From: a virus
Taxonomy: Duplodnaviria; Caudoviricetes
DNA: 64,000 bases
Reading direction: 5' to 3' (one strand)
Virus record (IMG/VR): IMGVR_UViG_3300028591_003737
Location: 105,615-169,614 of that record
Positions 25,296 to 63,834 of the stretch are shown here, one piece after another. Positions within the stretch are counted from its first letter, which is position 1; each line of letters begins with the position of its first letter. The notes beneath the pieces are model-generated. The model was given only the letters and a program-made list of their open reading frames with translations. It was not told where the DNA came from and did no database searches. The translations under genes were made by a program, and so were the position numbers.

Positions 25296-25823
25296 TTATT
25301 CTTGTGTGAATTCAGTTAATTCTGAATTATATTTAAGACTTACAGGATATTTATTTATTTCACTTGAATCAAGTTTTGATAGAACTTCATTAAGAACATT
25401 CTTTGGTTCATCATCATTCTTATCAAGAAGTTCAAACTCATCAAAAAGAATAATATACTTCAAATTTGTTAATTTGAACATATCAATCTTTTCATCTTTT
25501 ACTCTATCATCATAATATGGATCCCATTTTAAATTAATCTGTTCATCTTCATAAGTATCTGAAGAATGTTCAAATTTCTCATATTCAAAATATGCATCAT
25601 TTATATAATCCTTATTCTTACCAAGAAGATTTTGATATTTAGTATTTTCTGAAGGAAGTTCTTTAAGAAGAACATCTCCAAGATAAATTTGAATATCACT
25701 TTCAGAATAAATTTCTGGACCAGTGAGAGTAAAAACCTGTGGATTTATATCAAAAACTGCCTTAACATTAGTTAAGTGGATTTTCTCATAAGATTCTTTA
25801 ATATAATTAACTAAATTCTTCAT
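25296..25823 (-). CDS. Hypothetical protein with CTS-like leader
   Basis: Starts MKNLVNYIKE; coupled to the sigma gene by a TAATG overlap. Confidence 0.75.
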   Translation of the reverse strand: MKNLVNYIKESYEKIHLTNVKAVFDINPQVFTLTGPEIYSESDIQIYLGDVLLKELPSENTKYQNLLGKNKDYINDAYFEYEKFEHSSDTYEDEQINLKWDPYYDDRVKDEKIDMFKLTNLKYIILFDEFELLDKNDDEPKNVLNEVLSKLDSSEINKYPVSLKYNSELTEFTQE

Positions 25824-27055
25824 TATTCATCACCATCGATATTATTAAGACCAAACATCTTATCTTCCATTATTCTGGTTGAAAGATAGATTGGTTCTCC
25901 ATCATCTTCATATTCATCTTCATCATGCTTTGCTTCTTGCATAAGTTCAAAGATGTCTACGAATTTCTGGAACATTTTTTTATCTTTCTTGATAAAGTTG
26001 ATAACTTTAGCAATTTCTGCTGTAATTGAAGATGGTGAACTATAACCATACTTCTTAGCCATTTCTTTACCAGAAAGCTTCTTTTCTCCATTTTCAAGAC
26101 CAAAACCAAAGTGGTTCTTAAAGATATCCATAGTCTTTTCACCGAACTTATCTTCAAGAGCCTTAAGAATTTGTGACCAAAGGTCTTCAATTTCCTGACG
26201 GTCAATATTCTTACCAGGATTTTCCATTCCACCTACAAGGTCGAATAATGTCTTACCTTCTTCACCATCCTTTCCACCAAGATGACGGTCACCAGATACT
26301 GAATTAGATTTAGCGATATAACCTTTCTCTTCCTTTTCTTTCTTTTGTCTTGAAATAGGAATACGTACAAGATGTGAGAAATTCTTTGTTGCTTCAAGAA
26401 TTTCTACACGAATCATTTGTGCAGCATACTGAAGGAAAGTATATGACTTATACTTAGAAATATCAATTTCTTCACCAGTCAATTCTTCCTTCTTTTTCTG
26501 TTTATTACTCTTCTTTCCATAAGTGTCCATTGCATAGACAAGTCCCTTCATACCAAAGGCATAAATATCATCTCTATCGAATGAAGTCTTACCAAGCCAA
26601 GAATTAGTAATCTTATGTACAAGAGGTTCATACTTCTTTACAATTTCAGTTCTACCCTTCTCTGTAGTAAGGTCCATGATAATTTCATCAGGAGAAGCAG
26701 TCTTATCAATAATTGAATCAAACTGTTCTTTTGTCATAAGAGTAGGGATTTCAAGTATACGACCACTTGAATATATTTTACTGATGTTACTATATAATGA
26801 TTTAAGAGATGCTTCCTTTGGAAGTCCCTTATTGAAGAAATCAACAATAGCATTATCAGTATCTCCTGTAGAAAGATCTTTAATATATGTCTTATTGTTA
26901 TCAATTAACCATTTACATACTTCTTTTGCTTCAGGAGAAATAAATTTATCAGCAATTTCAAGATACTTGTTAAGCTGATCAACTGTTAAATAATTAACTG
27001 AATCCTCTTGGATTTCAATTGTTTTTGCTTCGAATAACTGCGAAAATCTCTTCAT
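25823..27055 (-). CDS. Sigma70-family RNA polymerase sigma factor with N-terminal extension and CTS-like leader
   Basis: Region 2 (IVKKYEPLVHKI..DDIYAFGMKGLVYA..TFLQYAAQMIRVEI..LVRIP) and region 4 HTH (FKNHFGF..LSGKEMAKKYG); starts MKRFSQLFE. Confidence 0.85.
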   Translation of the reverse strand: MKRFSQLFEAKTIEIQEDSVNYLTVDQLNKYLEIADKFISPEAKEVCKWLIDNNKTYIKDLSTGDTDNAIVDFFNKGLPKEASLKSLYSNISKIYSSGRILEIPTLMTKEQFDSIIDKTASPDEIIMDLTTEKGRTEIVKKYEPLVHKITNSWLGKTSFDRDDIYAFGMKGLVYAMDTYGKKSNKQKKKEELTGEEIDISKYKSYTFLQYAAQMIRVEILEATKNFSHLVRIPISRQKKEKEEKGYIAKSNSVSGDRHLGGKDGEEGKTLFDLVGGMENPGKNIDRQEIEDLWSQILKALEDKFGEKTMDIFKNHFGFGLENGEKKLSGKEMAKKYGYSSPSSITAEIAKVINFIKKDKKMFQKFVDIFELMQEAKHDEDEYEDDGEPIYLSTRIMEDKMFGLNNIDGDE

Positions 27056-27099
27056 ATTATATGTTTAATTAAACTTATTTGTTAGCATACTTCAGATAA

Positions 27100-27198
27100 A
27101 ACATAGAATAAATTTTCAAAAATTCAATATTTTTTACTAAAAAAATTAAAATATTGAAATATAAATTCCAAGTTATCTATATTTATATATAAAAATAA
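27100..27198. promoter_or_regulatory. Divergent control region: minus-strand TTGAAT-N16-TATGTT (27100-27127) and late motif (27186-27198) for the sigma gene; plus-strand TTGAAA-N18-TATATT (27154-27183)
   Basis: Matches to both recurrent motifs. Confidence 0.5.
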
Positions 27199-27216
27199 AA
27201 GTTTTATATCATAGTT

Positions 27217-27753: not shown

Positions 27754-27773
27754 AAATATTTTTAACGTTAAAA

Positions 27774-28277: not shown

Positions 28278-28412
28278 TTTAGTTTAGCCAAGTTTATATT
28301 TTAGTATTTCCTTTATTGGAGAGTAAAATCTTCAATAAAGGTTTTTATTTAGTCCCAGATTTAATCTAAAACTATTAACCATATACTAATATATTTTTTT
28401 AGTTAAAGCGCT

Positions 28413-28428: not shown

Positions 28429-28464
28429 CTATCAAGGATTTAAAATCTTTGATAGCTTTTAAAT

Positions 28465-30951: not shown

Positions 30952-30953
30952 AA

Positions 30954-37099: not shown

Positions 37100-38827
37100 T
37101 TAGATAAGTCCAAATTCTGAACCAACTGTAAATGTGAAGTACTGTGTTTCTGGATAGAAACCAGCGTCAACAATAGCATATCTTGAGTTAACAAGCATCT
37201 TAGGAGCCATTGTACCTTCAGCTGTGATAGATACTGTATCAGCAAGAATATAAGGCATAAAGATTACACCAGGTTCATTACCGTTACCCTTTCTACCAAC
37301 GCAAACTCTTGTGTCATCCCAATCCATATAAGGATCAACATAAACCTTAAGACCTGCAATTGTACCACTCATGAATAAGTTCTGTGAACCATCCTGTGCG
37401 AAGTTGTTTACCATAGGAGCAACAACATAACCACTAACATCCTGAAGAGCTGTAGCAACCTGAGCATTTGTAACAACCCATGTTGGTCTACCTCTACGTC
37501 CAGTTACCTGGATAAGGTTAGCAGCAGCAAGAAGCTTAGAACCAATTCTTCTCTGACGAGTATGAAGATTTTCAGCACTTGTGTTAACTTCACTGTTCTT
37601 GATTGTTCCCCAATCTCCTTTGTGTTCTACACCATATACATCCTTGAAAGTCTTGATTGACTGAGCAGCCATTGTGCTATCTGATGTACCCATCCAAAGG
37701 TTAAGGTCAACACCCTGATAGATCTTCTGGTTAATAGCGTTAGTTACACCAAGAGCAAATACATGTTCAAGAATTCTAGCATTGATTGACTGAGTGATTT
37801 CATTCTGCATTGCTTCCATAACCTTAGCAACAGCGTCAACACCGTAAAGAGGAAGATCCTGAAGTTGCTGTCTTGTTACAGTACCAGTTACTTCATAAGA
37901 ACCCATCTGTACCCATTTGCTGAATAATCTAAGACCAAGTACATTACCTGTACCAGTTTCATTTTCAGCTCTTGTCATTGATCTCTTTTCACCAGTTGCG
38001 AAGTTAGCGAAACCATCAACGAAATCAACCATTGTCTGAGCGAAATCAACTGAAGTTACATTACCAGCAGCAACACCGCTAAGAACTGCAGGATTTACAC
38101 CATCGAAAAGATCTGCTACAGCAGCGTGACCATCAGCACCTTCGCAAGAAACAACCTTAACGATAAGACCGTGATCCATTCTACCAAGCTGTACAAATGT
38201 ACCCTTGAATGTTACACCATTACCTACAACAGTAACTGATTTGTCAGCATCATCAGCAAGTTTTCTAAGAGCTGCTGTATCACCATCAAAACCAAGGAAT
38301 TTTACATAAAGAGGTTTGTTTTCAGCACCTTCTCCTCTACCATCAAGGCCAGCTACTTCGTTCTTTCTACCCATCTTACCACCAGCATATGGGAAGTCCA
38401 TATAAGTTAACATTGCCCAAGGACCTTTAGCAGGAATAACTGGAACAAGTTCAAGACCGATTGTAAGAAGTGCTACGTTAAGGGCCATAGGAAGTGTTGA
38501 TACAGGAATATCACCGCTACCAACTGCCTGTTTAAAGAAGTCACCTGATGCACCCATTGGAACCTGACCATTAGCACCATAACCTGGAGCCATTGGATTA
38601 CCCATACCAAGAGTATTAAGAGGTGTAGCATAAAGTGGAGAAACACCCTGTGCAGGAGCTACCTGACCATTGATATTAGCGCCACCAACACCAAGCATTG
38701 ATTCATGAATTTCATGGATAGCTGCATATTGTGATACCCAGTTTAACTTTTCGTTATCTGTAACGTTGAAATTTTCTTTCAACATTTTAGTCCACATCTG
38801 TGTACCATTTTGTTCGTTAATAAACAT
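37100..38827 (-). CDS. Major capsid protein (T4 gp23-like)
   Basis: TRQQLQDL..GVDAVA..NEITQSIN..GRRGRPTWVVT..GTIAGLKVYVDPY..GVIFMPYI..PKMLVNSRYA; strong codon bias. Confidence 0.92.
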   Translation of the reverse strand: MFINEQNGTQMWTKMLKENFNVTDNEKLNWVSQYAAIHEIHESMLGVGGANINGQVAPAQGVSPLYATPLNTLGMGNPMAPGYGANGQVPMGASGDFFKQAVGSGDIPVSTLPMALNVALLTIGLELVPVIPAKGPWAMLTYMDFPYAGGKMGRKNEVAGLDGRGEGAENKPLYVKFLGFDGDTAALRKLADDADKSVTVVGNGVTFKGTFVQLGRMDHGLIVKVVSCEGADGHAAVADLFDGVNPAVLSGVAAGNVTSVDFAQTMVDFVDGFANFATGEKRSMTRAENETGTGNVLGLRLFSKWVQMGSYEVTGTVTRQQLQDLPLYGVDAVAKVMEAMQNEITQSINARILEHVFALGVTNAINQKIYQGVDLNLWMGTSDSTMAAQSIKTFKDVYGVEHKGDWGTIKNSEVNTSAENLHTRQRRIGSKLLAAANLIQVTGRRGRPTWVVTNAQVATALQDVSGYVVAPMVNNFAQDGSQNLFMSGTIAGLKVYVDPYMDWDDTRVCVGRKGNGNEPGVIFMPYILADTVSITAEGTMAPKMLVNSRYAIVDAGFYPETQYFTFTVGSEFGLI

Positions 38828-38943: not shown

Positions 38944-40689
38944 TTAAGCTCTTCTGAGTCTCATCATCTGAGCATATACATTGTTATAATGACTTTCAAG
39001 AACGTCCTTTGGTTCTTCAACTGACTGAGGAGTTTTTGCTGAAGCAAAATCTACACTCTGCCAGAATGATTCAAGAACACCTTCTTTCTTAAAGTCATAA
39101 GCCTTTGACATTCTAACTATTTCGTCTTGTCTTTCTTCTGAAAGAGCATTCCAAGATGGCTGATATTCAGCAGGCATATTTTCAACTACGTATACACCAG
39201 CGAACTTATCTTGTGCTTTCTGTTCTTTTACAAGCTGTGAGATAGCTTCATCTTTGTTTTCAAGGCTTTCAATAAGAGCGTCAATATCTGAAAGCTTAGC
39301 AGATTTCTGACTTTCCATGAAAGCAGAAACATTTTCATTTACTTTTGCTTCGATATTAGCATTGTTTTCAGGAGTATATTCTTCATTAATCCAACCTTCG
39401 ATAACTGGAGCAAATTCTTCACAAACCCAATTCTGAACTTCTGGTGCAAATTCTTCACATACCCAATTCTGTACTTCTGGAGCAAATTCTTCACATACCC
39501 AGTTCTGTACTTCTGGAGCGAATTCTTCTGTAATCCAATTCTGTACTTCAGGAGCGAATTCTTCGCATACCCAATTCTGAATAGTTTCTGAGAAATTCTC
39601 AACTACCCAATTTTGAACATCTGAATTAATAGACTCTGAAAGTTCTGTCTTAAATTCAGGAGCAAATTCTTCTGTAACCCATTTTTCAATCTTTTCATAC
39701 TGAGGAGCTTCATAAGCATTTACCTTTTCATTTACACCATTAAGTGTTTCATTAACACTATTAATAGAAGTATTAACACCTTCAAGTGTTTCATTAAGTT
39801 TTGCAATTTCTGCATCCTTAGCTGTTAATGATTCTTGAGCAACATGAAGTTCAGCTTCTAAACTAGTTACCTTTTCAGTAAGTTTATCAATTGCTTCTTT
39901 TAAATCATTCATTGTAGTATCTTGACTATTTTTGTTATTATCATCTTTATCAGATGTATCTTCTTTATTTTCATCGTCATTTTCTTCATCTTCTTTCTTG
40001 TCATCACCTTCTTCAGATTTTTCATCTTTCTTAGGTTCGTTTTCAGAAGAAGAATCTCCTTCACCTTTATCCTTGTTGTCTTTATTATCTTCTTCACCAA
40101 GTAAATCATCGTCTTCGCTTTCATCTACGATAGCCCAGATTTCATTACCGTCTTCAGCAGATTCATTTAAACATTCAAGGGTTTGATTGGCTTTAAGGTT
40201 TAATTTAGCTTGAGCAAAACCAGGTGTACCAACTAAGTCATAAGTTTTAATAGTAGAAAGTGTTACATTACCATTTTCATCAATAGAACCAGCACCTCTA
40301 GAAGAAATATAAAGAGGAACACCACCAGCAACAATAGCTTTTGCATCTTTACCTTTAGCAGTATCAAGTAAAAGAATTGTACCAGTAATTGTACCATCTT
40401 CATTCATTTCAATAGACTCAATCTTATGTGAAACATTATTAAGATTAATATTCATAGTATTAGGATGTTCAAGTTCTCCAAGAAGACCTTCAGTTGAAAT
40501 AACTTTTTGAAGATTTTCAACCATTAATCCGTAATTTTCCTTTGAATATATACGTCTATTTTCATTCTTAATTCCGCAAACACCAAATACACCTGTCATA
40601 CGAACTTCATTAGTATTCTGAGACTCCTGGATCTGCAATCCTGTTGTAGGTCCTAAAGTTTCAAATACCATGCATTTTTTATTTGCCAT
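38944..40689 (-). CDS. Prohead protease (gp21-like) fused to a scaffold/core (gp22-like) region
   Basis: N-terminal GVFG..KNENRRIYS..LGELEHP..VSHKI..ISSRGAGS..TYDLVGTPG, followed by an acidic linker and coiled coil. Confidence 0.9.
   Translation of the reverse strand: MANKKCMVFETLGPTTGLQIQESQNTNEVRMTGVFGVCGIKNENRRIYSKENYGLMVENLQKVISTEGLLGELEHPNTMNINLNNVSHKIESIEMNEDGTITGTILLLDTAKGKDAKAIVAGGVPLYISSRGAGSIDENGNVTLSTIKTYDLVGTPGFAQAKLNLKANQTLECLNESAEDGNEIWAIVDESEDDDLLGEEDNKDNKDKGEGDSSSENEPKKDEKSEEGDDKKEDEENDDENKEDTSDKDDNNKNSQDTTMNDLKEAIDKLTEKVTSLEAELHVAQESLTAKDAEIAKLNETLEGVNTSINSVNETLNGVNEKVNAYEAPQYEKIEKWVTEEFAPEFKTELSESINSDVQNWVVENFSETIQNWVCEEFAPEVQNWITEEFAPEVQNWVCEEFAPEVQNWVCEEFAPEVQNWVCEEFAPVIEGWINEEYTPENNANIEAKVNENVSAFMESQKSAKLSDIDALIESLENKDEAISQLVKEQKAQDKFAGVYVVENMPAEYQPSWNALSEERQDEIVRMSKAYDFKKEGVLESFWQSVDFASAKTPQSVEEPKDVLESHYNNVYAQMMRLRRA
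39368..39690 (-). repeat. 33-bp tandem repeat encoding QNW(V/I)(C/T)EEFAPEV
   Basis: Five near-identical units plus three degenerate ones within the protease-scaffold gene. Confidence 0.9.
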
Positions 40690-41792: not shown

Positions 41793-42116
41793 TCAATACT
41801 TAGGATAAATATATAATATCATATTGTTTGTTTTACAAGGTTTTTCAACATCTAAATTTTCTTCAATCCATTTAGCAACTGGTTTATATATCCATCTATG
41901 TTGTTTCTGTACTGATAAGAAAATATATTTCTTTGATTTACCTACGTTAATATATTCTTCATAATTATCAAATTTTACTAATCCAGAATATTTTTCAATA
42001 ATATATTTTTTAATCTCTGAAATAAATTTATTGTTTATTTCATCAATATCATCTAATACTTCTGTTTCTTTATTTAAGTGAAGTTTTTCTAATATGTAAT
42101 TATTGATATTAATCAT
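41793..42116 (-). CDS. Leader-bearing small protein (EKLHLNK family)
   Basis: MININNYILEKLHLNKE. Confidence 0.75.
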   Translation of the reverse strand: MININNYILEKLHLNKETEVLDDIDEINNKFISEIKKYIIEKYSGLVKFDNYEEYINVGKSKKYIFLSVQKQHRWIYKPVAKWIEENLDVEKPCKTNNMILYIYPKY

Positions 42117-42118
42117 TT

Positions 42119-42547
42119 TTATTTATATAATTTTTTATTACCATCAATATATTCATAATATTCATCATATAGTTCTCTACCTGATAAATGCATACTATCA
42201 TTACCAAAAGTTATAGTTACTCTACTTCTATTAACTAACCATTCAATAATTCTTCTATGTTTTTTAATTAATAAAAATATATCACCATCTCTTCTATTAA
42301 TATCAGACATACTAAAACTATATTGGAAATAATTATTTAAAATATTAATAATTTCTTCATAATCTATTCTACCCCAATATATTTGTTTTTGAAATGTAGA
42401 ATTTTCTTTATATATTTTATATATCATAATACATAAATATGTAGCAATGATAATATCTCTAACTTTATCAATATTATCAATTTCAGATGATTCAAAATCT
42501 TTATTTAAATGTAATTTTTCAGATATATAATTATTAATGTTAATCAT
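42119..42547 (-). CDS. Leader-bearing small protein (EKLHLNK family)
   Basis: MININNYISEKLHLNKD. Confidence 0.75.
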   Translation of the reverse strand: MININNYISEKLHLNKDFESSEIDNIDKVRDIIIATYLCIMIYKIYKENSTFQKQIYWGRIDYEEIINILNNYFQYSFSMSDINRRDGDIFLLIKKHRRIIEWLVNRSRVTITFGNDSMHLSGRELYDEYYEYIDGNKKLYK

Positions 42548-45489: not shown

Positions 45490-45491
45490 AA

Positions 45492-46723: not shown

Positions 46724-46724
46724 A

Positions 46725-47540
46725 TTAATAAATTTCTTTATTTACTTCTTCTTCTATTCTATTAATAAAATCTGAACATCTTTTTATAAATTTATCATCT
46801 CCATCATAATATTGTTTATTCTCTTCTAATCCTTTTTTTGCTCCTTTTATAAAAGAACTTAAAACATTTCCAAAGAATTCTACTCCCCATTCACCAATCC
46901 AAGATTTACCATAATTTTCAATATCTTGTAATCTTGTTTTTGATTCATTAACTATATATTCATTAATTGATTTCATATTATTATTTTGTATATATTTCAA
47001 TATATTGCTTTCTTTAATTGATGATATTTGTTTTTTAAATTCAGAGAATAAATCATGAGCTTCTTTAGGCATTAATTCTTTAAATTTTTCTTCATCATCA
47101 TTTTTTATTGCTTCTCTAACATCTGTTGCTGAACCATATCTTTTAGTAATATAAAATTCTGGTTCATCTATTCCAAGTTCATCTTTAATAGATTTACCTT
47201 TCATTAATTTTTTATATCCATCAATTCTATCTTCACCAGCAAGCCAAAGAACTGGTTCATATCCATTTTCAATACATACTCTACATATTGTCATTGGCAT
47301 TGGTCTTCTTATCCAATTAATTCCTTCAATATATTCATATTTATCTACAAGACGTTCAAGTTCTTTCTTTGTCAATTCATCATCAAATGGTTTTCTTGAA
47401 TCAAACTTTTCATTATGAATATACATAATATAAACTGGAAGACCATTCTTTTTGAATGCATCTTCACAAGCTTTCAAGTGACCATTATGAAATGGTTGAA
47501 AACGACCTGGGAATATATTTACTTTTTTAAGTTCTGACAT
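46725..47540 (-). CDS. HIGH-motif cytidylyl/adenylyltransferase (NadM/NMNAT-like) with C-terminal leader-bearing module
   Basis: PGRFQPFHNGH, AGEDR, SATDVREAI; internal MKSINEYIVNE at 46976. Confidence 0.75.
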   Translation of the reverse strand: MSELKKVNIFPGRFQPFHNGHLKACEDAFKKNGLPVYIMYIHNEKFDSRKPFDDELTKKELERLVDKYEYIEGINWIRRPMPMTICRVCIENGYEPVLWLAGEDRIDGYKKLMKGKSIKDELGIDEPEFYITKRYGSATDVREAIKNDDEEKFKELMPKEAHDLFSEFKKQISSIKESNILKYIQNNNMKSINEYIVNESKTRLQDIENYGKSWIGEWGVEFFGNVLSSFIKGAKKGLEENKQYYDGDDKFIKRCSDFINRIEEEVNKEIY

Positions 47541-47549
47541 AATATTTAT

Positions 47550-49445
47550 TTATTTTTTTACAAAACCAATTGTTCCATGTCCATTCCAATCTGATGGACC
47601 ACAACCAGCAATATCAAATTTAAATACTTGTTTATTTAATGGATATAATTTCAAAATAATATCTAATTTTTTATCTTCTTTGTTCCATTTTATTTCAGTA
47701 TCTATTTGATTAGATTCTAAATAATTATTTAATAAAATAGATAATATATTAGAAGTATCATTTTCATTATTTATTTCATTTGAATATAAATTATTTAATT
47801 CATCTACACATCTAATAATTAATGGGTACATAATTTTTGAATAATTTTCTTGATAAACTTTATTCTTTCCTCCACTTTTAATATAATAATCAGTATTTTT
47901 TATATCCTTTTCAGAACTTAATCCATCCCAAGATATAAAATTCCAATCCATATTACCTTTTATTTTTGTTTTATTACTTATACCAATTAAAATATCTTTT
48001 ATCTCATCTTTATTTTTATAATTATCTATTAAATATAATGCTCTATCTTTTTCTGGATAATCCCAATTATCTTTTTTTAATTGTAAAATATTACATAATT
48101 TTTTAAAATTCTCATCATCTTCAAATAATGACCAAGATAATTTCCATATATTTCTATTTTGATCAGTTTTTGCTAAACCGCTTCCATCTTTTTTTAATTT
48201 ATAAAATATTTTCATTCTTTCAAGAAATTCATCAATTTCTTGTTTAGTAATATTAAATGAATCAGCTATTTGATAAATATTATTTAAAATATCTTTATCT
48301 TTATTATCAATTTCTTTAAAAATATTTATCATTATAGAAGAAATACTTGGTCTATGTCCATTTTTAGAATCTTTACTTTTAATAGAAATACCTATTCCAT
48401 TAAAATATAAATCATTTAAAAATTCACTACCATTATCTGGCCAATATAATGAATTTCTATCTTCTTTTTTACAATATTTATATAATAACAATCCTGCTAA
48501 TACTTCTCCAAATCCTACTTCTAATGAATTTCTATCTTGTGGAGATAATGTATTATAAATATTATTATACTTTTCTGTTAAATTAATTGTATGTTTTATT
48601 TCTAAATTATTTTTTGATAATTTAGATAAAATATCTTTATCAATTATATAATTACTAATATTAGAATTTAAAATTTCTTTTGATATATATGATATAAAAT
48701 CTGAATATATACCATCTTCTATAGTTATATTTTTCTTTGAGTTATTTGTAATTAATGATAATATTCTTTCTATATCTTTATTATTTTGTAAATTAAATCC
48801 ATCTTCAATCGAATTTGAAGTTAATCCTAATGCTTTTGGTTGTACTGATTCTGTTTTTATAAGAATTCTTTCTCCTTTACCATTTGAATCTGTATTACAA
48901 ATATAAAATTCTTTATCTTTCCAAGTAACTTTTACACTAAGGAAACTTCTAGAAGATTTTTCTCTATTTATTTTTGGTTCATCTACTTTAAAATCATCCA
49001 TTCCAACAATATTACCTCCCAAAATTTTTTCAATATTTTCTTTAAAAGTTGATGAATGACCAAATTCTCCTCTTATATATTCTTCAGGATATTTTCCAGA
49101 ATTCCAACCTTTAACTATATTTGGCCCAGTTTTTATATAAAAAGATACATTTCTTTTTCCTAAAATATTTAAATATGTTTTTAATGAATTAGCATTTGAA
49201 GTACAAATAACTTTTGAACCCTTTTTATAAATTGGTTCATTATTATCATTAAATCCTTCTATAGGAAATTTAGTATTATAAATAGAATATTTTTGATCTT
49301 TAGAAGGAAATAAATAATCATATAAAGAAATATTATATTTTGACATAATACTTCTCATAGCATCATATTTATTTTTTGATGTTTCTTCTATGTCTTCAAA
49401 AATATTTATAATATTTTCATTAATATATTCTATAATACTTTTCAT
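47550..49445 (-). CDS. Large leader-bearing protein with putative PD-(D/E)XK nuclease-like core
   Basis: Likely start is MKSIIEYINE (49445); FGEVLAG..WPDNGSEFLNDLYFNGIGISIKSK. Confidence 0.5.
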   Translation of the reverse strand: MKSIIEYINENIINIFEDIEETSKNKYDAMRSIMSKYNISLYDYLFPSKDQKYSIYNTKFPIEGFNDNNEPIYKKGSKVICTSNANSLKTYLNILGKRNVSFYIKTGPNIVKGWNSGKYPEEYIRGEFGHSSTFKENIEKILGGNIVGMDDFKVDEPKINREKSSRSFLSVKVTWKDKEFYICNTDSNGKGERILIKTESVQPKALGLTSNSIEDGFNLQNNKDIERILSLITNNSKKNITIEDGIYSDFISYISKEILNSNISNYIIDKDILSKLSKNNLEIKHTINLTEKYNNIYNTLSPQDRNSLEVGFGEVLAGLLLYKYCKKEDRNSLYWPDNGSEFLNDLYFNGIGISIKSKDSKNGHRPSISSIMINIFKEIDNKDKDILNNIYQIADSFNITKQEIDEFLERMKIFYKLKKDGSGLAKTDQNRNIWKLSWSLFEDDENFKKLCNILQLKKDNWDYPEKDRALYLIDNYKNKDEIKDILIGISNKTKIKGNMDWNFISWDGLSSEKDIKNTDYYIKSGGKNKVYQENYSKIMYPLIIRCVDELNNLYSNEINNENDTSNILSILLNNYLESNQIDTEIKWNKEDKKLDIILKLYPLNKQVFKFDIAGCGPSDWNGHGTIGFVKK

Positions 49446-49449
49446 AATT

Positions 49450-49920
49450 CTATACTTTTTTATCTTCTTTAACTGGAATTGGTGGAATTGGTACAATATT
49501 CAATGCAGGAACATTTACTTGTACACCCCTTATGTCTTCCATATTCTTTGGTGGATTTGATTCTCCAAAATTTTCTTTATAATATTTATCCAAATCAATA
49601 CTATCTTTTGGAATATATGGAATTGGAACAATTGTCAAAAGAGGAACTTTAAGTTGTGTTGTCTTTCCATTAGCATCAGTAAATTTTATTTTACCGTCAG
49701 ATTCAACAATATTTGGATGATCAAACTTAGGATATTCTTTAATTAAATCTTCAAGAAAATCTTTAGTAAATACTCCAGGTAATTGTTCTAATTTTTGAAC
49801 ATGATTATTCATTAATTCATCAACAGTCATATCTGCCGCATCAACTACTCTTACGGTGTTTGGTAATATAAACTTACCAATTTTTTCTCTAAGCTTATTA
49901 AACATATTTAATTTATTCAT
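49450..49920 (-). CDS. Hypothetical Pro-rich protein
   Basis: 156 aa with two VP.L.IVPIP repeats. Confidence 0.65.
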   Translation of the reverse strand: MNKLNMFNKLREKIGKFILPNTVRVVDAADMTVDELMNNHVQKLEQLPGVFTKDFLEDLIKEYPKFDHPNIVESDGKIKFTDANGKTTQLKVPLLTIVPIPYIPKDSIDLDKYYKENFGESNPPKNMEDIRGVQVNVPALNIVPIPPIPVKEDKKV

Positions 49921-49939
49921 TATCTTTTAAAATTTTATA

Positions 49940-50581
49940 TTAATCTTTCCATGCTTGAATAACCTTCAAATTATCTAATTGAAGTCCACGAGCATATTGT
50001 ATATTTTTGGTATCATCATCAACAAAGATGACTTTATCATATTTTGAGCAAAGATCTTTAAGAACATTTGCTTTCTTTTCTGCATCAGATTTTCCAGGAT
50101 AATCTTTGAATTCATCATTGATAGCATGAGAAAGTGTTTCTTTAAATATATCTTCTAATTCTTTAAGATTACCTTCATCATCTTTATATCTTAAGAAATC
50201 ACGAAGTGCTTTTTTAACGGCTTCTTCACAACCTCTAGCAGTTAAGAAACAGAAATGATAACCAGCTTTAATATAAGAATCCATAATCTTAAGATTCTTT
50301 ATAAGTGGTGTTCCTTCAATAATTGAATTATATACTTTTACTTCATCACGAAAATCTCTAAAGTCAAACCAATCTCTATGATTAGCAATATCTGGATCAA
50401 CAGCAAATTCTTCTGTTGTTAATGCTATTTCTTTTTTAGTAGTAGGATCTTTTTTATAAATCTTTATACTATCTGGTTTTACTTTAAGAAGAGTATCATC
50501 TATATCAAAAACAATCAAGCCACTCACTGATTTAGGAAGTGGTTTGATTGCCTCATATATATATTCTATAATGCTTTTCAT
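49940..50581 (-). CDS. HAD-superfamily phosphatase with CTS-like leader
   Basis: FDIDDTL, FLTARG, K, FVDDD; likely start is MKSIIEYIYE (50581), just downstream of the late motif. Confidence 0.8.
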   Translation of the reverse strand: MKSIIEYIYEAIKPLPKSVSGLIVFDIDDTLLKVKPDSIKIYKKDPTTKKEIALTTEEFAVDPDIANHRDWFDFRDFRDEVKVYNSIIEGTPLIKNLKIMDSYIKAGYHFCFLTARGCEEAVKKALRDFLRYKDDEGNLKELEDIFKETLSHAINDEFKDYPGKSDAEKKANVLKDLCSKYDKVIFVDDDTKNIQYARGLQLDNLKVIQAWKD

Positions 50582-51189: not shown

Positions 51190-51831
51190 TCAACCTCTTT
51201 TAGTATACCATGATGGTTTTTTCTTTAATTTATTACAATCTTTAAACATTAAAGTTTTTTTACCAATTCTTTTATAATCCCAAGATTCTAAATCTCTATT
51301 AAAATTCTTACAACCCCAGAACATATAATCACAATCACAACCATTTTCTCTGAATTTCCAATTAGATATATCTTCATTAAATAATTCACAATTCATGAAC
51401 ATACTTTTTGTACTTCTACAATTATCTAATTCCCAATATCTTAAACCATTTCCTTCAAAGTTTTTACAATTCAAGAACATACCATACATGTCTTGAACAT
51501 TATGTACATCCCATTTAGATAAATCACAATCAAAGTTTACACAATCTCTAAACATTTCATCCATATCTTTTACATTAGATACATCCCAATCAGATATATT
51601 AATATTATATATCTTATCTCCGAATGGTTTAAATAAATCACTCATATAATCTATTTTAGATACATCAATATCATTTAAATCTGCATCTCTTCCTCTTTCA
51701 TTAATAAGTCTTTCAAGAAGTTCACTTAATTCTTTTTTATTTTCTGGAAAGAATTGAGGTTCTACTTCTTTTTTAACTTCTGAATGATTAAACTTAAGTT
51801 TTTCTATTATGTAGTTATCTATATGTTTCAT
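51190..51831 (-). CDS. DUF285/BspA-like repeat protein with CTS-like leader
   Basis: Repeats ISDWDVSNVKDMDEMF / LSKWDVHNVQDMYGMF / FNEDISNW; starts MKHIDNYIIEKLKFN. Confidence 0.8.
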   Translation of the reverse strand: MKHIDNYIIEKLKFNHSEVKKEVEPQFFPENKKELSELLERLINERGRDADLNDIDVSKIDYMSDLFKPFGDKIYNINISDWDVSNVKDMDEMFRDCVNFDCDLSKWDVHNVQDMYGMFLNCKNFEGNGLRYWELDNCRSTKSMFMNCELFNEDISNWKFRENGCDCDYMFWGCKNFNRDLESWDYKRIGKKTLMFKDCNKLKKKPSWYTKRG

Positions 51832-51834: not shown

Positions 51835-52134
51835 TTATTGTTTAATATATTTTACTATAAATTCAGCAATTTGATCTTTTATTTTATCTTTCTTATCATC
51901 TTGTAAAAATTCATCATCAGATGGTTGATATGCAAGATATTCTTTTGGATATTTCTCTGCTAAACAATCTGATAATTTCTTTAATCTACCTTCAACATCA
52001 CAAATTCCATCAAGTAATTCACTATAATTTTCTTTAGTAAAGTTTTTACTTGACTTAAACATATTTATTGTTATTTCACACCAAAGAGGATGTTTCTTTA
52101 ATTCCTCAGTAATATATTCATTAATCTTTATCAT
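51835..52134 (-). CDS. Leader-bearing small protein
   Basis: MIKINEYITEEL. Confidence 0.7.
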   Translation of the reverse strand: MIKINEYITEELKKHPLWCEITINMFKSSKNFTKENYSELLDGICDVEGRLKKLSDCLAEKYPKEYLAYQPSDDEFLQDDKKDKIKDQIAEFIVKYIKQ

Positions 52135-52136
52135 AA

Positions 52137-52595
52137 TTAAATTACTCCTGAAATTATAAAACTTTTTGTATCATCAGTTATTGAAAATCCAATAATTCTA
52201 TCTGATAAACAATATCTTTCAACATACTTAGATAAATTTCCATTATCTAAAATTACTTCTGTACTAGTTTGTGAAGCAACTATATCATTTATTTTATCTC
52301 TATCTTGTTTTGAATATTTTCCATAACTTGGAATATACTTTTCAATAAAATCTTTACTTTCTTCAGATAATTTTCCTTTATTTGGATAATCAGTAGTTCC
52401 TCTATAAAGATATTTAAAATCTTCAATTTTAGAAACATGCATATCTTTAAAAAGTTTTTTAATATTTTCACTTTCTTTTAACTCTTCCCAATCAAATAAT
52501 TCAGATATAGTTTTTAAAAAATCATCCATATCTGATACTTTAGTATTCTTATCTAAATGAAGTTTTTCTATTATATATGTATTAAGTTTTATCAT
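52137..52595 (-). CDS. Leader-bearing small protein (EKLHLNK family)
   Basis: MIKLNTYIIEKLHLDKN. Confidence 0.75.
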   Translation of the reverse strand: MIKLNTYIIEKLHLDKNTKVSDMDDFLKTISELFDWEELKESENIKKLFKDMHVSKIEDFKYLYRGTTDYPNKGKLSEESKDFIEKYIPSYGKYSKQDRDKINDIVASQTSTEVILDNGNLSKYVERYCLSDRIIGFSITDDTKSFIISGVI

Positions 52596-52610
52596 TATTT
52601 AATATTTTCT

Positions 52611-53006
52611 TTATTTAATATTTTCTTTTAAAAAATTATAAAAACTATTAAAGAGATTATTCATATTATCTCTATCATCAAGATCATTATATTCTATTTT
52701 ATTTTTTGATGACCATCCATTTTCATCTGGCCAATCTATAGTATCATTATAAATTAAAGATAATTCTAAATGATGCATATCAGAATATCTAAATATATGA
52801 ATAAATTTTTCGGTATCTGATAAATAAATATTTAAAGCACTTTTATGATCTTTTCCTTTTAAATATCTAGATATAACTTTTTTATTATCAGATAATTCTA
52901 AATCACTTAATTTAGAAATAGATAATAAATTTATATTAGATTCTTTTGCTTCACTGTTTTTATTAAGTTGAAGTTTCTCAATTATATATGTATTAAGTTC
53001 TTTCAT
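52611..53006 (-). CDS. Leader-bearing small protein (EKLHLNK family)
   Basis: MKELNTYIIEKLQLNKN. Confidence 0.75.
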   Translation of the reverse strand: MKELNTYIIEKLQLNKNSEAKESNINLLSISKLSDLELSDNKKVISRYLKGKDHKSALNIYLSDTEKFIHIFRYSDMHHLELSLIYNDTIDWPDENGWSSKNKIEYNDLDDRDNMNNLFNSFYNFLKENIK

Positions 53007-53704
53007 TATGCTCCTAATTCTTTTTTTAATTCATCAATAAATTGTTGACTCCATTTAAAATTTTTATCATTTACCCTATAATTATAATATGTTCCTCCAA
53101 TTATAAATATTATTTCACATTTAGCACTTTTATTCTTATAAGTTACTTTAAAAGGTAAAGCAATTTTTCCATTTCTTTCTTTCATTATTTCAAGAGCTTC
53201 TTTTGAATAACTATCATAATCAGTATAATTAAATTCTATTCTATACTTTTGATTCTTAATTATTACATCTAATAAAGTTTCAATAACATCATAATATTCT
53301 GCTGCTAATTTAGTAGGTAAATCATGTAATTCTTCTGGTTTAGCTAATTCATAAGCATTTATAAAATCTTGAGGTTTAGCATTATATTGATCTATTCCTC
53401 TATCAACAAAATATGAACCAAAATTACCTGGAAGAGAAATTAGTGTATTTTTATAAATATATGGTACAGAATTAGTCATTATCATTATTGTAACCCATTT
53501 TTTAATACAACTATTAGCACTTAAACATTTATTAGAAAGATTTTTACATCTTTCTCTATCATAACCAACACTATATCTTGATGTAGAATTAAAAATATCT
53601 TTTACCTTTTCTTCATCTTCTTTAGTGATAGTATATGTATTGATATCTTTAATATCTTTATTAAGTTTAAGTTTCTCTACTATATAATTATCTAATTCTA
53701 TCAT
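53006..53704 (-). CDS. Leader-bearing protein (EKLHLNK family)
   Basis: Likely start is MIELDNYIVEKLKLNKD (53704). Confidence 0.75.
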   Translation of the reverse strand: MIELDNYIVEKLKLNKDIKDINTYTITKEDEEKVKDIFNSTSRYSVGYDRERCKNLSNKCLSANSCIKKWVTIMIMTNSVPYIYKNTLISLPGNFGSYFVDRGIDQYNAKPQDFINAYELAKPEELHDLPTKLAAEYYDVIETLLDVIIKNQKYRIEFNYTDYDSYSKEALEIMKERNGKIALPFKVTYKNKSAKCEIIFIIGGTYYNYRVNDKNFKWSQQFIDELKKELGA

Positions 53705-53705
53705 A

Positions 53706-53897
53706 TTATCCTTTATGTGCAAAATATGCTTTTAATGCATTTTCAGCATCTGTTTTTGTATGATATTTAGCTTTCCAATATCCTCGTTTAGGTGTATTAG
53801 TTCCTTTACCAGCATGTCCTTTTATTCTCCAATAATCACCAACTTTTACAATGACATCTTCAAGTTCTTCTGTTAAATATTGTTTTAATGTTTTCAT
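53706..53897 (-). CDS. Leader-bearing small basic protein
   Basis: MKTLKQYLTEEL; late motif at 53899-53911 immediately upstream. Confidence 0.7.
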   Translation of the reverse strand: MKTLKQYLTEELEDVIVKVGDYWRIKGHAGKGTNTPKRGYWKAKYHTKTDAENALKAYFAHKG

Positions 53898-53914
53898 ATA
53901 TATAAAAATAAAAA

Positions 53915-55567: not shown

Positions 55568-57424
55568 TTAAAAAGCATTTGTTTTAAAAGGTATTTTATC
55601 TGTACCCCAAATTTTAAATCCTGTATCTGATTCTTGTGTATTATTTTGTTTAGATGACATTTCATCAGTTAAATCTTTATTAATAATATTAGCTGGTGGT
55701 TCAACTTCTTCTCCATCAAATATACTAGCAACAAATTCTCTATATAAATTATCATTATCAGAACCTTTACCAAGATTCCATCCTCTAATACCTGGGCAAC
55801 ATTTACCCATAATATCATAGTGACGTATTACTCTTTCAGGAGGTATATTAAATTCTTTTACTAATAATTTACATAAATATCTTGTATTAGCTAAAACTTC
55901 ATCAGTAAAATAAAAATGAGGATCATTAGGAACCCATTTACCACCATTAGCAAGAGTTGAAGACATTTCAATAGATACTGAATTATTATTATTTGCATTT
56001 TTACCTGCTGATGTACCACTTGAACTCCATCTTTGAACAGCAGTACTAGCCCATTTTGTAATATCATCAGCTAATTGTATTATTAGGTTATCATCTACAG
56101 CAAAATCTGAAGAAAGTTCACGAGTATTAAGTGTTCTTAATGTATTCATCGCATTATTTTTTCCAGAAGTAGTTGATGCTGAATAGTGAAGTATAATATA
56201 TTGAATAGTACTTGTTCTTTTAAACATAAATTGTGTTTGATTAACAACAGTAATACCTTTAGCATTTGGTTTTTCAGGAACAATTGGTATATTTTTTCCA
56301 CTACCTTTATAAGTTTTACTTTCAAATGATCCTTCAAAATTCATCATTGATAATTGACCAAATGATGGGAATATATCTAATAAATTAAGATCATCAATAG
56401 GAACTCCACAACAAAATTGAGATAATATTTTAGCAACTAATAAAGATACGATAAAATCATTTGGTATTTCATTATATGATTTATTAGTATTTAATTTTTC
56501 TTCTTCTTTATTTTTATCTATTTTTTCTTCTATTGATTCAAATGTTTTAGAATAATCTTTTGCTTCAGTTAAAAGATATGCTGCATATAATAATTTATGA
56601 TCATCATCTTCTAAATCATTTCTTTGTTTAGGTTTTCTATCATAACTTAAATAATCAAATAATGTTCTATCATCTCCACTATTTTTCTCAGAATTTTGAA
56701 TAATATAACATAATATACTAACCCATGAATTTAAATCTAACATACTTAAAAGACCATGTTTAGCAGTATTATATTTTGTTTCATTAGTAGTTATTGATTT
56801 AACATTAGTATTTACTGCGAAAGAAGCACTATGATTTAAATTTAAAGCTTCTATTATTTTCTTTTTATCAGGCCATTTATTAATACCTAATAATCCTTCT
56901 TTACGTCTAGTCCAATCTTTATTATTTTCATATACATCAAAATATGTTGGATCCCATTTACTTTTAGAAAATATCATTCCACAAAGCATATATGCACTTT
57001 GTCTAGGAAATTTTAAACTTCTTAAAGTATCAAATAAATCTTTACCCATATATAATTCTTGAATGTTATGTGGGAATTTTTCTTCATAATAATCAAAAAC
57101 TATACTACTACCAATATTATCTTGAATATATTTAATTAAATCTGGAGGAATAATAAAATAATCATCATCTCTATATAACATTGCTATAGCACCTTCTGCT
57201 GATAAATTACTATATTCATTACTTCTAGAATCTTGAATTATAAAATTTTTAAATTCAATTAAATTATCTTCATTTTCAGTAGGAATAATATTATTTATAT
57301 CATCGCCATAAAAAGACATATACATACCAATTAAACTAGAACGAATATTAGAAATCGTTCTATAAATATCATCTTCTTGACGTTCTGATAGCCAATCTAT
57401 TTTAATATTTTCATCATTATTCAT
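55568..57424 (-). CDS. N-acetylmuramoyl-L-alanine amidase (Amidase_2-like C-terminal domain) with long N-terminal region
   Basis: YIILHYSA..SSDFAVDD..NNNSVSIEM..VIRHYDIMGKCCPG; likely start is MNNDEN (57424), after the late motif at 57427-57439. Confidence 0.8.
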   Translation of the reverse strand: MNNDENIKIDWLSERQEDDIYRTISNIRSSLIGMYMSFYGDDINNIIPTENEDNLIEFKNFIIQDSRSNEYSNLSAEGAIAMLYRDDDYFIIPPDLIKYIQDNIGSSIVFDYYEEKFPHNIQELYMGKDLFDTLRSLKFPRQSAYMLCGMIFSKSKWDPTYFDVYENNKDWTRRKEGLLGINKWPDKKKIIEALNLNHSASFAVNTNVKSITTNETKYNTAKHGLLSMLDLNSWVSILCYIIQNSEKNSGDDRTLFDYLSYDRKPKQRNDLEDDDHKLLYAAYLLTEAKDYSKTFESIEEKIDKNKEEEKLNTNKSYNEIPNDFIVSLLVAKILSQFCCGVPIDDLNLLDIFPSFGQLSMMNFEGSFESKTYKGSGKNIPIVPEKPNAKGITVVNQTQFMFKRTSTIQYIILHYSASTTSGKNNAMNTLRTLNTRELSSDFAVDDNLIIQLADDITKWASTAVQRWSSSGTSAGKNANNNNSVSIEMSSTLANGGKWVPNDPHFYFTDEVLANTRYLCKLLVKEFNIPPERVIRHYDIMGKCCPGIRGWNLGKGSDNDNLYREFVASIFDGEEVEPPANIINKDLTDEMSSKQNNTQESDTGFKIWGTDKIPFKTNAF

Positions 57425-61774: not shown

Positions 61775-61804
61775 TTATAAAAAAGATATATTATATATAA
61801 AAAT

Positions 61805-61833
61805 AAAAAAGACTGATAAAATATCAGTCTTTT
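61805..61833 (-). terminator. Intrinsic terminator
   Basis: aaaagactgata / tatcagtctttt. Confidence 0.75.
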
Positions 61834-61853
61834 AATTATATATTTGATATATT

Positions 61854-62375
61854 TTATGAAAGCATCATAAGATGTTCAGCATGACGACGTTTGATATGAC
61901 CTGGAGCAGAAATTCTAGACTCTTTAACACCTGCTACTGTATAATTAAAATCATCTTCATTCATTATTCCATTCTTAACTCTACATTTAAGAAGACGCTG
62001 ATAAAATGTACTTTTCTTTACTCCACCTTCACCACAATTATAAATAAGAGAATAAAGACCATCAATAAATCCCTGAGAAAATTCATATTCATAAGGAAGA
62101 GCTTCAATAAGACGTTTTACACTTCCTTTAAATTTATTGATATCTTTTCTAAAATATTCATCTGCCTGAGCTCGTGTAATAGTCATTCCTTCATAAACAT
62201 CAGAACCATGATGACCATAACCAATAGAATAACCATTTGCATCATGATAAGCAGTCAACTGACAAGTTTCATATTTCTTAATGAATTCAATACCTTCAGA
62301 AGAAATACTATATTCTTTACTAAAAGAAATAAAACTTATAGTAAGAAAAGAAATAATAGTAATAATCTTTTTCAT
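61854..62375 (-). CDS. GH24 phage lysozyme with N-terminal signal peptide
   Basis: GIEFIKKYE..LTAYHDANGYSIGYGH..YNCG..RRHAE; MKKIITIISFLTISFISFS signal-like N-terminus; early-type promoter at 62402-62429. Confidence 0.85.
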   Translation of the reverse strand: MKKIITIISFLTISFISFSKEYSISSEGIEFIKKYETCQLTAYHDANGYSIGYGHHGSDVYEGMTITRAQADEYFRKDINKFKGSVKRLIEALPYEYEFSQGFIDGLYSLIYNCGEGGVKKSTFYQRLLKCRVKNGIMNEDDFNYTVAGVKESRISAPGHIKRRHAEHLMMLS

Positions 62376-62457
62376 AATATTTTTATTTTGTTTCACATAT
62401 TAATATAGTATAAAAAAGAAAAAATTCAAAGATTTTATTTCTTTGAATTTCAATTTA

Positions 62458-62907
62458 TTAATATACTCCTTTAAAATAATATATATTTAATTTACCAGGT
62501 TTTTTAACTAATAAATTATTTGAAGGATATTTTTGTCCTAAACAACTTTCATCTGAATATATTTCTATACCATTTTTATTATATAATTCTTTAAATCTTT
62601 TTTTATCTTGTTTATATAATTCTATAGCATCTTCATCTTCAAGAGGACTTAATGATACTCCATCTGGTAAATCAGCATGTTCTGCACAAAATGTTGAAAG
62701 ATCTTTTTTAATTTTAAATGTTTTAATCCATGTTTCTAATACATCAGCAATATCATAATTATCTTTAAAATCCAATATATATAACATTAAATCAACTAAT
62801 TTATTTTCATGAAGTTTAAATTTAGTTGTTAAACTATCTCTATCTTGAATTTTAATATCTTTATCTAATTTAAGTTTTTCTAATATATATTCATTAAAGT
62901 TTTTCAT
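62458..62907 (-). CDS. Leader-bearing small protein (EKLHLNK family)
   Basis: MKNFNEYILEKLKLDKD. Confidence 0.75.
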   Translation of the reverse strand: MKNFNEYILEKLKLDKDIKIQDRDSLTTKFKLHENKLVDLMLYILDFKDNYDIADVLETWIKTFKIKKDLSTFCAEHADLPDGVSLSPLEDEDAIELYKQDKKRFKELYNKNGIEIYSDESCLGQKYPSNNLLVKKPGKLNIYYFKGVY

Positions 62908-63415
62908 ATAAATCTAATAAATCTTTTACTTTATCTGGATTATTTTTGATTGTTACTGAATCAAATGAATCATTTTTATCAAAATATTGATAAATTTTAT
63001 TTTTTTGATGATAAAAATCTAATGCTATATCTTTTATAAAGTTAATACCTTCTTCTTTATTTAAATATATTATTTTTGCTTTCCATTTATCTTGATCAGT
63101 TCCAACACTTCCTAAAAATTCATAATAACCATTAGAGTTAATAAACATATCTCTTTCATAAGAATATTTATCTATATCATATTTATCATTTGGTGTATAT
63201 GTAAATCTTATTTCTCCATTATCTTGAGTATCATAGTAATAATATACAATAGATCTAACTGGATCATTTATCTCAAGTTCATCTATTGTTCTACCATTAT
63301 AAGAAAATATACCAATTCTAATAATTGGTTCACCTTTTTTAAAATCTACTGGAGATGTATTGATATTCTTATTTAAATGAAGTTTTTCAATAATATATGA
63401 ATCTAATTGTTTCAT
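62894..63415 (-). CDS. Leader-bearing small protein (EKLHLNK family)
   Basis: MKQLDSYIIEKLHLNKN. Confidence 0.75.
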   Translation of the reverse strand: MKQLDSYIIEKLHLNKNINTSPVDFKKGEPIIRIGIFSYNGRTIDELEINDPVRSIVYYYYDTQDNGEIRFTYTPNDKYDIDKYSYERDMFINSNGYYEFLGSVGTDQDKWKAKIIYLNKEEGINFIKDIALDFYHQKNKIYQYFDKNDSFDSVTIKNNPDKVKDLLDLYEKL

Positions 63416-63834
63416 TATACTAATTGTTTTTGAAGAATTAATTTATATTCTCTTTCTACATTTTCTTTTGAGTCAGATGAATGCATTGCATTTTTCATAT
63501 CATCTTTACCCCATTCTTTACGAACTTTATTTTTTATAGTTTTTAAATCTTTAATAGGATCTTTACAATCTTTTCTTAACATATAAGAAATAGAATCTCC
63601 AGAAGCCATATAAGTACATAATTCATCATAAAATGGTTTATCTTTTAATCCTATATAAAGTTCTTTAGCTTCATCAAGAGATAAAGTTCTTTTTACTTTC
63701 TGTACAATCTGCCAATCTTTATTTCTTAAAAGATTATCAAAATCATATTCATGATCTAAAAATTCTGGTTTAAGAATAGCAAATCCATTTACTTCAGATA
63801 ATGCTTCTTGAATGTATTGAACTAAGTTTTTCAT
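63415..63834 (-). CDS. ndk: Nucleoside diphosphate kinase with CTS-like leader
   Basis: FAILKPE, KDKPFYDELCTYMASG, NAMHSSDS; likely start is MKNLVQYIQE (63834). Confidence 0.85.
   Translation of the reverse strand: MKNLVQYIQEALSEVNGFAILKPEFLDHEYDFDNLLRNKDWQIVQKVKRTLSLDEAKELYIGLKDKPFYDELCTYMASGDSISYMLRKDCKDPIKDLKTIKNKVRKEWGKDDMKNAMHSSDSKENVEREYKLILQKQLV

Follow-up and report, generated by a model that had tools for sequence, protein, structure and literature searches.

About 35 mostly unrelated genes of an uncultured T4-related phage open with one common short peptide, M-x-x-(L/I)-x-x-Y-I-x-E, and we consider it fairly probable that this leader is a capsid-targeting and cleavage propeptide of the T4 type. 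The phage is represented by a single 169,614-bp contig with 27% G+C (IMG/VR record IMGVR_UViG_3300028591_003737, here G000), and the window that was analyzed is its terminal 64 kb, in which the genes, by simple open reading frame (ORF) calling, are tightly packed. The leader is strictly N-terminal, is selected as a peptide and stands on unrelated protein bodies, and the same genome encodes a matching prohead protease and major capsid protein. If the leader works as the tag does in T4, about one gene in seven encodes head cargo and the virion is a protein-delivery device as well as a DNA container.

The motif is found at the start of 31-36 of the ~219 ORFs of the 169.6-kb contig. A preliminary description of the window had listed 21 such N-termini, and all 21 were found at the start coordinates given there, on the minus strand. 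Seventeen of them fit the strict form M-x-x-[LIF]-x-x-[YF]-[IL]-x-E and four are variants: the protein starting at 27055 has its Glu at position 9, those starting at 45489 and 45806 are without Glu-10, and the copy at 46976 is internal to a 271-amino acid (aa) ORF at 46725-47540. Of the 34 matches that a six-frame search of the whole genome with a regular expression gave, two fall in short spurious ORFs and 32 lie at, or only a few codons from, a long ORF's start; the leader motif is confined almost wholly to ORF starts. Two forms of the leader can be distinguished. In ~20 genes the peptide runs on after Glu-10 with K-L-(H/K)-L-(N/D)-K-(D/N), typically K-L-H-L-N-K-D, and this is the long form. 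In the remaining genes it ends at the 10-residue unit, as in the five genes of an enzyme operon at 44587-50581, which start with M-K-S-I-I-E-Y-I. Taken together, the leader genes hold 6,657 of 52,261 coding residues, or 12.7% of the coding capacity. It had also been described that the leader is absent from the small-gene operon at 5879-12053, and indeed none of its genes bears one.

As a comparison genome we used Tenacibaculum phage PTm1, a related AT-rich phage of similar base composition. The loose pattern ^M.{4,5}[FYL][IL].E is matched by 31 of 219 ORF starts in G000 versus 2 of 297 in PTm1 (Fisher p = 1.6e-10). When a gene was counted as clustered if its first 12 residues were at least 50% identical to those of at least four other genes, there were 34 clustered genes in G000, 19 in the cultured phage PAU and 0 in PTm1, and the same count made on residues 31-42, as a control, was 0 in all three. 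Selection acts on the leader peptide and not on its DNA. The DNA is not conserved, because the codons for Leu (TTA/CTT) and Ser (TCA/AGT/AGC) switch from gene to gene: Leu-12 is encoded by CTT 12 times, TTA 7 times and CTC once, Leu-14 by CTT 10 times and TTA 9 times, both in line with genome-wide usage, and Ser-3 of the short form by TCA, AGT and AGC. Ile-8 and Lys-11 favour ATA and AAA, respectively, above genome-wide usage. The 60 bases upstream of the leader genes show no relation among the genes. A translation-initiation bias of an AT-rich genome, which the preliminary description had named as the alternative to its proposal, is contradicted by these codon data, by the unrelated upstream DNA and by PTm1, which is without a leader family.

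The positions that matter in the leader were determined from leaders picked solely by the downstream motif K-L-x-L-x-K, without reference to positions 1-10, and circularity was therefore avoided. There were 48 six-frame matches in four genomes, and in 45 of them a Met is found exactly 10 residues upstream. The information content is highest at positions 1, 4, 7, 8 and 10, and Glu-10 is present in 45 of 45. The peaks at 4, 7, 8 and 10, which are peaks of conservation and not a measure of function, coincide with the positions of the T4 tag that were mapped by mutation (PMC9026906). In the IPIII tag of T4, targeting depends on residues 4 and 7 and processing on residues 8 and 10; an Asp at position 10 stops cleavage and leaves targeting intact (PMC9026906). 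An invariant Glu two residues past an invariant Ile is the requirement of a gp21-type cleavage site, which argues that the leader is more than a docking helix.

In the T4 genome the same loose pattern is matched by 7 of 275 ORF starts, which are ipII, ipIII, gp21 (protease), gp22 (scaffold), gp24 (vertex), inh (minor head protein) and gp61.1 (no known function). Six of these seven are head-core or head proteins according to the T4 record annotation or to reviews (PMC9026906, PMC5694885), and the pattern is therefore nearly specific, in T4, to proteins that enter the prohead. The 10-residue capsid-targeting sequence of T4 that the preliminary description quoted is, in the T4 record, common to ipII and ipIII. 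The gp61.1 protein (54 aa; NC_000866, 18966-19130, minus strand, locus L082) has an N-terminus that is identical to the ipII/ipIII tag in 7 of 10 residues, and among the T4 proteins it matches the G000 leader profile best. Both phages thus have N-terminal peptides of 9-10 residues that end with an aromatic or hydrophobic residue followed by (I/L)-x-E and that are carried by unrelated proteins, and in both genomes a gp21-family protease is found together with a capsid protein of the gp23 family. They differ in that ~35 genes are tagged here versus two canonical and ~6 tag-like propeptides in T4, that many leaders here have a conserved 7-residue extension past the presumed cut, and that the protease here is fused to a scaffold. 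Unlike the T4 IPI-III class, which is small, basic and associated with DNA, the leader proteins are acidic and several are enzymes. The T4 tag is also known from experiments and the present one from sequence alone.

The head genes that such a tag would need are found in the window, on the minus strand. A gp21-like protease had been described at 38944-40689, and it is confirmed by a match to Peptidase_S77 (Pfam PF03420) with E = 4.7e-9 and 36.5 bits, where the cut-off is 27. This prohead protease of 581 aa is fused to an acidic linker, a coiled coil and a repeat-rich scaffold region. It is 41% identical to the PAU capsid maturation protease, and its PTm1 orthologue is annotated as 'prohead core scaffolding protein and protease'. 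The motifs G-E-L-E-H-P (His) and S-S-R-G-A-G-S (Ser), which we take to hold the catalytic residues of the protease family, align with T4 gp21 and PAU gp151, and the N-terminus V-F-E|T (residues 8-10) aligns with L-I-E|T of T4 gp21. A prediction of the complex between one leader protein (residues 1-40) and the full protease-scaffold, made without controls, gave no answer (score 0.00) and counts neither way. The scaffold part contains, at 39352-39576 (minus strand), ~6 tandem 12-residue repeats of the form Q-N-W-V/I-C/T-E-E-F-A-P-E-V with one (V/I)-x-E site each; ~8 copies are present in the related fragment G001 and ~9 in G003. From their sequence, the repeats may be scaffold modules that are cut by the protease, or docking sites.

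The major capsid protein of the gp23 family (37100-38827, minus strand; Pfam Gp23, E = 1.2e-29) is ~34% identical to the PAU major capsid protein gp156. It has an N-terminal propeptide with (L/I)-x-E sites at residues 16-18 and 37-42, which align with sites in PAU and PTm1, and its gene is followed by the tail sheath and tube genes. The leader arrays share the strand of the scaffold-protease and capsid genes and directly precede them in the direction of transcription.

The bodies behind the leader are different from each other. It had been proposed that the domains after the leader are unrelated, and when the first 20 residues were removed from 36 leader proteins, only 3 of 630 body pairs were related by BLASTP. 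The leader also behaves as a portable add-on, as was suggested, with known domains that begin right after it (the nucleoside diphosphate kinase, NDK, at residue 18, Hydrolase/HAD at residue 22 and DUF285 at residue 49). The domain labels that were first assigned fared unevenly: NDK, DUF285 and HAD stand by Pfam, and the sigma and nucleotidyltransferase (NTase) labels fall below the Pfam thresholds. For the 410-aa sigma-like protein the Sigma70_r2 match has E = 0.1 only, and both labels depend on language-model look-alikes, which in the case of sigma include viral sigma-like clusters. Across 75 leader proteins from four related genomes, Pfam recognizes DUF285 seven times, NDK three times, HAD twice, and a P-loop kinase (AAA_33/KTI12) and an RNA ligase once each; ~80% of the proteins are without a recognized family, and for most of the cargo, searches of Pfam, PHROG and PDB sequences gave no match. 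A database search with one whole cargo protein returned 5 close relatives, and a search with residues 1-40 alone returned nothing but the query's own cluster. No match was obtained by tblastn with a 25-residue leader or by megablast of 24 kb against cultured phages, and no paper on the leader strings was found in the literature.

By capsid protein, the closest cultured relatives are PAU, PTm1, pT24, the Lak phages and a Chryseobacterium phage, with 32-38% identity. The PAU host is actually a Sphingobacterium according to a reference cited in PMC10537231, and, as far as that citation carries, the clade as known therefore infects Bacteroidota. A sister leader, M-K-T-L-x-x-L-Y-E, stands at the start of 17 PAU genes, often with A-K-L-N-E-A next, which makes two L-x-E sites. 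Ten of the 17 are clustered around the portal gene, between gp142 and gp154, with the capsid gene shortly downstream. In the PAU record (JQ362498) the leader is present on four of five genes noted as 'internal capsid protein' and on the 'scaffolding' gene (hypergeometric p = 3.7e-5 and 2e-6). N-terminal sequencing showed that 65 residues are removed from the PAU capsid protein (PMC5646251); an L-M-E ends at its residue 64. G000 therefore resembles PAU in its capsid protein (34%) and protease (41%), in having an N-terminal leader family with an L-x-E type of site, which in PAU includes many genes of the head module, and probably, within what the same citation supports, in having a Bacteroidota host. 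It differs from PAU in that the PAU leader has its Glu at position 9 and a second L-N-E site at 12-14, the PAU scaffold itself bears the leader, and the PAU protease and scaffold are separate genes.

The leader is also found in uncultured relatives. A degenerate DNA pattern for the long leader gave 43 stretches in IMG/VR contigs, with 58 protein-level motif matches, all but ~9 of them at an ORF start. G001 (a 74.7-kb fragment) and G003 (28 kb) are syntenic with G000, have the same protease and capsid genes and show 29 and 10 leader matches. G004 (168 kb, ~59% complete) belongs to the PAU/PTm1 clade by its portal and terminase homologues and shows 16 leader matches on a fragment without the capsid region. 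The S77 protease is present in G000, G001 and G003. A Pfam search for the protease in more distant leader-bearing contigs (G002 and G004-G007), which are 12-59% complete fragments without the capsid region, gave no match, as in every genome searched (G000 was not among them), and it carries no weight for or against the link. The capsid, sheath and tube proteins of G000 are 90-96% identical to those of G001 (capsid and sheath, 90-93%), and for the enzyme cargo (NTases, HAD and NDK) the identity between the two is 88-97%. The small long-leader genes are replaced, are 29-61% identical, or are alike in the leader alone. Comparing 29-61% with the 90-96% of the structural proteins, the small cargo turns over fast and the tag is kept; in the G001 and G003 orthologues, leader positions 4, 7, 8 and 10 are retained and the remaining positions drift.

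A mechanism that fits these data can be suggested. The leader would form an amphipathic N-terminal segment through its hydrophobic residue 4, Tyr-7 and Ile-8, to which the long form adds Leu-12 and Leu-14. This segment would dock the new protein onto the prohead core, that is, the scaffold, which is here fused to the protease. The gp21-family serine protease would then cut after the invariant Glu-10, with Ile-8 at P3, and the cargo would be freed inside the head. The K-L-H-L-N-K-D extension may lengthen the docking helix, so that the cut at Glu-10 would split the helix and release the cargo. We infer docking and cleavage from the T4 model, as we do the retention of the cargo in the mature head and its delivery to the host. 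Delivery into the host is plausible and is less certain than head targeting and cleavage. The load itself is feasible, since one copy each of all leader proteins comes to 6,657 residues, which is small compared with the roughly 900 internal protein molecules of the T4 head (PMC9026906).

Several points weigh against a T4-type propeptide. The conserved K-L-H-L-N-K-D sits past the proposed cut, and the T4 model gives it no accounted role. PTm1 has the same protease-scaffold fusion and no leader family, its N-terminal clustering count being 0. The mature cargo is acidic, with a median isoelectric point (pI) of 5.6 and just 6 of 36 proteins above pI 8, and the T4 internal proteins are basic. NDK and HAD enzymes are expected to act in the cytoplasm during replication and are not obvious candidates for injection. 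With a hidden Markov model (HMM) of leader residues 1-10, neither ipII nor ipIII is among the best 12 of 1,580 T4 Met-starts, where only gp61.1 scores, and a genome search with the leader alignment found nothing in T4; because the leader HMM misses ipII and ipIII, the likeness to T4 is one of shared design and not of demonstrable homology. Enrichment of the leader in late operons was dropped as support, as timing is not assignable from promoter sequence. Lastly, the association with the PAU 'internal capsid protein' notes is circular if the annotators used the leader itself. This is argued against by gp70, which has the note and is without the leader, and the nicknamed capsid components together with the same group's N-terminal sequencing suggest that the PAU annotation has an experimental basis, which is unpublished.

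Other explanations for the leader can be considered. One option is that it is a docking helix for a common partner outside the prohead, such as a host protein, a membrane site or a replication/repair complex, where the Glu is part of a binding surface and not a cut site. The long form does resemble a 17-residue amphipathic helix whose conserved residues 11-17 lie beyond the supposed cut, cytoplasmic-type enzymes (NDK, HAD, kinase and RNA ligase) are among the cargo, and PTm1, with the same head genes, does without the leader family. Yet such a helix leaves the exact stop of the short form at Glu-10 unexplained and gives no account of the match to the T4 targeting and processing positions (PMC9026906), of the same pattern marking T4 head-core proteins, or of the head-module position of the PAU leader genes and their annotation as internal capsid proteins, and we regard it as unlikely. 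Another hypothesis is that the genes are one fast-diverging paralogue family that has kept the N-terminus alone, so that the leader reflects common descent and not a portable tag. Most of the small long-leader proteins are without a recognizable family and they stand in tandem arrays, as duplicated genes do; this origin is nevertheless distinctly improbable given the clearly different folds under the leader (NDK, HAD, DUF285, P-loop kinase and RNA ligase) and the 3 of 630 related body pairs, and even with common descent the strong selection at positions 4, 7, 8 and 10 would still require a function.

It could also be suggested that the leader is the recognition sequence of a modifying enzyme, with one maturase serving many precursors as in ribosomally synthesized and post-translationally modified peptides. 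A radical-SAM protein is encoded at G000 66667-67554, two genes from a weak leader variant, but it matches Radical_SAM and Fer4_12 alone and has no SPASM domain, its gene is far from the arrays, and no further candidate was noticed beside them; the S77 protease, by contrast, is present in G000, G001 and G003, and this explanation seems very improbable to us. Least credible of all, the motif could be a DNA recombination cassette or a feature of the mRNA or of translation initiation in an AT-rich genome. The AT-rich codons, with ATA at Ile-8 and AAA at Lys-11 preferred beyond genome usage, would fit it. A DNA-level cassette and a translation bias were both rejected on the codon evidence, that is, the switching at Leu and Ser, and the upstream regions are unrelated. 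Moreover, the capsid, sheath and tube genes, for which the highest expression is expected, start with M-A or M-F and are without the motif, as is PTm1 with its similar base composition.

If we return to the capsid-targeting propeptide, the principle is already known from T4, and T4 reviewers had proposed that through the tag a variety of proteins can be packed by T4-like phages. The novelty lies in the scale of the tagging, in the extension of the leader, in the enzymes among the cargo and in the phage clade, which is one of Bacteroidota. A broader and more doubtful proposal, which we offer as a tentative one, is that in a Bacteroidota clade of the T4 superfamily one cleavable tag loads dozens of interchangeable proteins into the head, that these are delivered with the DNA, and that the cargo is cut free in the middle of a helix. 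The cargo would then be an RNA-repair-like set (kinase, ligase, phosphatase and nucleotidyltransferases), NDK, DUF285 proteins, fast-evolving small proteins and possibly a sigma-like factor. If this is true, the virion carries a counter-defence kit loaded in advance, on a scale that T4 with its handful of tagged proteins does not approach. If the tag works as in T4, the small cargo genes with their fast turnover would be a rich source of candidate counter-defence proteins for Bacteroidota. To our knowledge, little is known about phage-host conflict in Bacteroidota. A 10-residue tag that comes with a protease of its own would, in addition, offer a practical means of loading these phages with chosen proteins, and the prediction is directly testable in the cultivable PAU, which has its own version of the tag.

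Portable tags of this kind have a parallel in encapsulins, where a short portable terminal peptide sends unrelated enzymes into an HK97-fold shell. The leader is similar to the encapsulin loading peptides in being a short portable terminal peptide on unrelated enzymes; encapsulin tags are usually C-terminal and uncleaved, and the shell holds no DNA and makes no delivery to another cell. In giant phages of the phiKZ type (phiKZ, 201phi2-1 and SPN3US), a protease related to gp21 cuts many head-internal proteins after Glu, and a role in targeting to the prohead is ascribed to their propeptides (PMC5694885). Unlike the leader, these propeptides are mostly 79 to >120 residues long, have no common short tag and are cut at the motif (S/A/G)-x-E (PMC5694885).

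The leader genes described here for the window are on the minus strand. At 25296-25823 there is a 175-aa leader gene, which is 75% identical in G001, and next to it, at 25823-27055, the gene for the 410-aa sigma-like protein, which has the PAU-type version of the leader (Glu at position 9, then A-K). Four tandem genes with long-leader N-termini, encoding 107, 142, 163 and 157 aa (41793-43508), lie upstream of the protease gene at a distance of two small ORFs. No family was found for these four by Pfam or PHROG, and their G001 orthologues are just 29-56% identical or alike in the leader alone.

Further upstream, a 300-aa NTase-like protein (44587-45489) has a variant leader without Glu-10; it is a paralogue of the protein at 45803-46723 and is 97% identical in G001. 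A 104-aa ORF (45492-45806) has a weak leader variant, also without Glu-10, with a low position-specific scoring matrix score of 8.0. The 306-aa NTase-like protein at 45803-46723 has a short leader, and its language-model look-alikes carry NTP_transf_2, which serves as a lead only. At 46725-47540 a 271-aa HIGH-type nucleotidyltransferase (Pfam CTP_transf_like) contains the internal leader copy from 46976. In G001 (C1:35771-37279) the module and the next leader gene form one in-frame fusion, whose junction retains Y-I-K-E and has lost the Met. By its sequence, the internal leader could mark either an internal start or the cut site inside a precursor of two modules. Two more short-leader proteins are found here, a 631-aa protein (47550-49445) with no Pfam or PDB match and a 213-aa HAD-type hydrolase (49940-50581; Pfam DUF2608 and Hydrolase, the latter from residue 22), which is 92% identical in G001 with the leader retained.

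A 213-aa DUF285 protein with a long leader is encoded at 51190-51831 (Pfam DUF285, E = 2.3e-41 from residue 49). It is followed on the map by five leader genes of 99, 152, 131, 232 and 63 aa (51835-53897), the first of which, in transcription order, adjoins the motif TTTTTATTTTTATATAT. The four of them that were scanned gave no Pfam or PHROG family, and the 63-aa ORF gave no Pfam match. Two long-leader genes of 149 and 173 aa, assigned by their N-termini, lie at 62458-63415; these gave no Pfam or PHROG match at the thresholds, and two Pfam matches were far under the cut-offs. The last gene, at 63415-63834, encodes the 139-aa NDK with a short leader (Pfam NDK, E = 5.4e-16 from residue 18), and the leader is retained in its G001 and G003 orthologues.

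Promoter-like motifs were also observed. TTTTTATTTTTATATAT is found at 14 sites in the window between 4892 and 61809 versus 1.7 expected (for example, 53898-53914, 61793-61809 and 16820-16836), often directly after a G+C-poor hairpin, like a terminator-promoter cassette. It precedes several leader arrays and several operons for proteins of >1,000 residues. At 53898-53914 the ATG adjoins the motif, and a leaderless transcript is therefore suggested. In the capsid, sheath, tube and protease genes the motif is a different though related one, TTATTTTTAATTA, and a third motif, CTATATTA(A/T)TAT, precedes five other genes.

Some other features of the window may be mentioned. Two adjacent genes on the minus strand, encoding 284 aa (12424-13278) and 83 aa (13302-13553), have a common N-terminal module of ~35 residues and then diverge. 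On the plus strand, the 1331-aa protein at 20364-24359 and a 1297-aa protein at G000 44692-48585 (plus strand) show ~68% identity over their first 60 residues, with no longer match reported, and a T-rich motif stands before each gene; judged by their sequences, they may be tail fibre-like proteins with a common attachment end. A 618-aa protein (55568-57424, minus strand) has an amidase/endolysin-like domain at residues 394-599. The T-rich motif stands before its gene as well, and the neighbours of this gene are a head-closure-like gene on one side and one for a holin-like membrane protein on the other.

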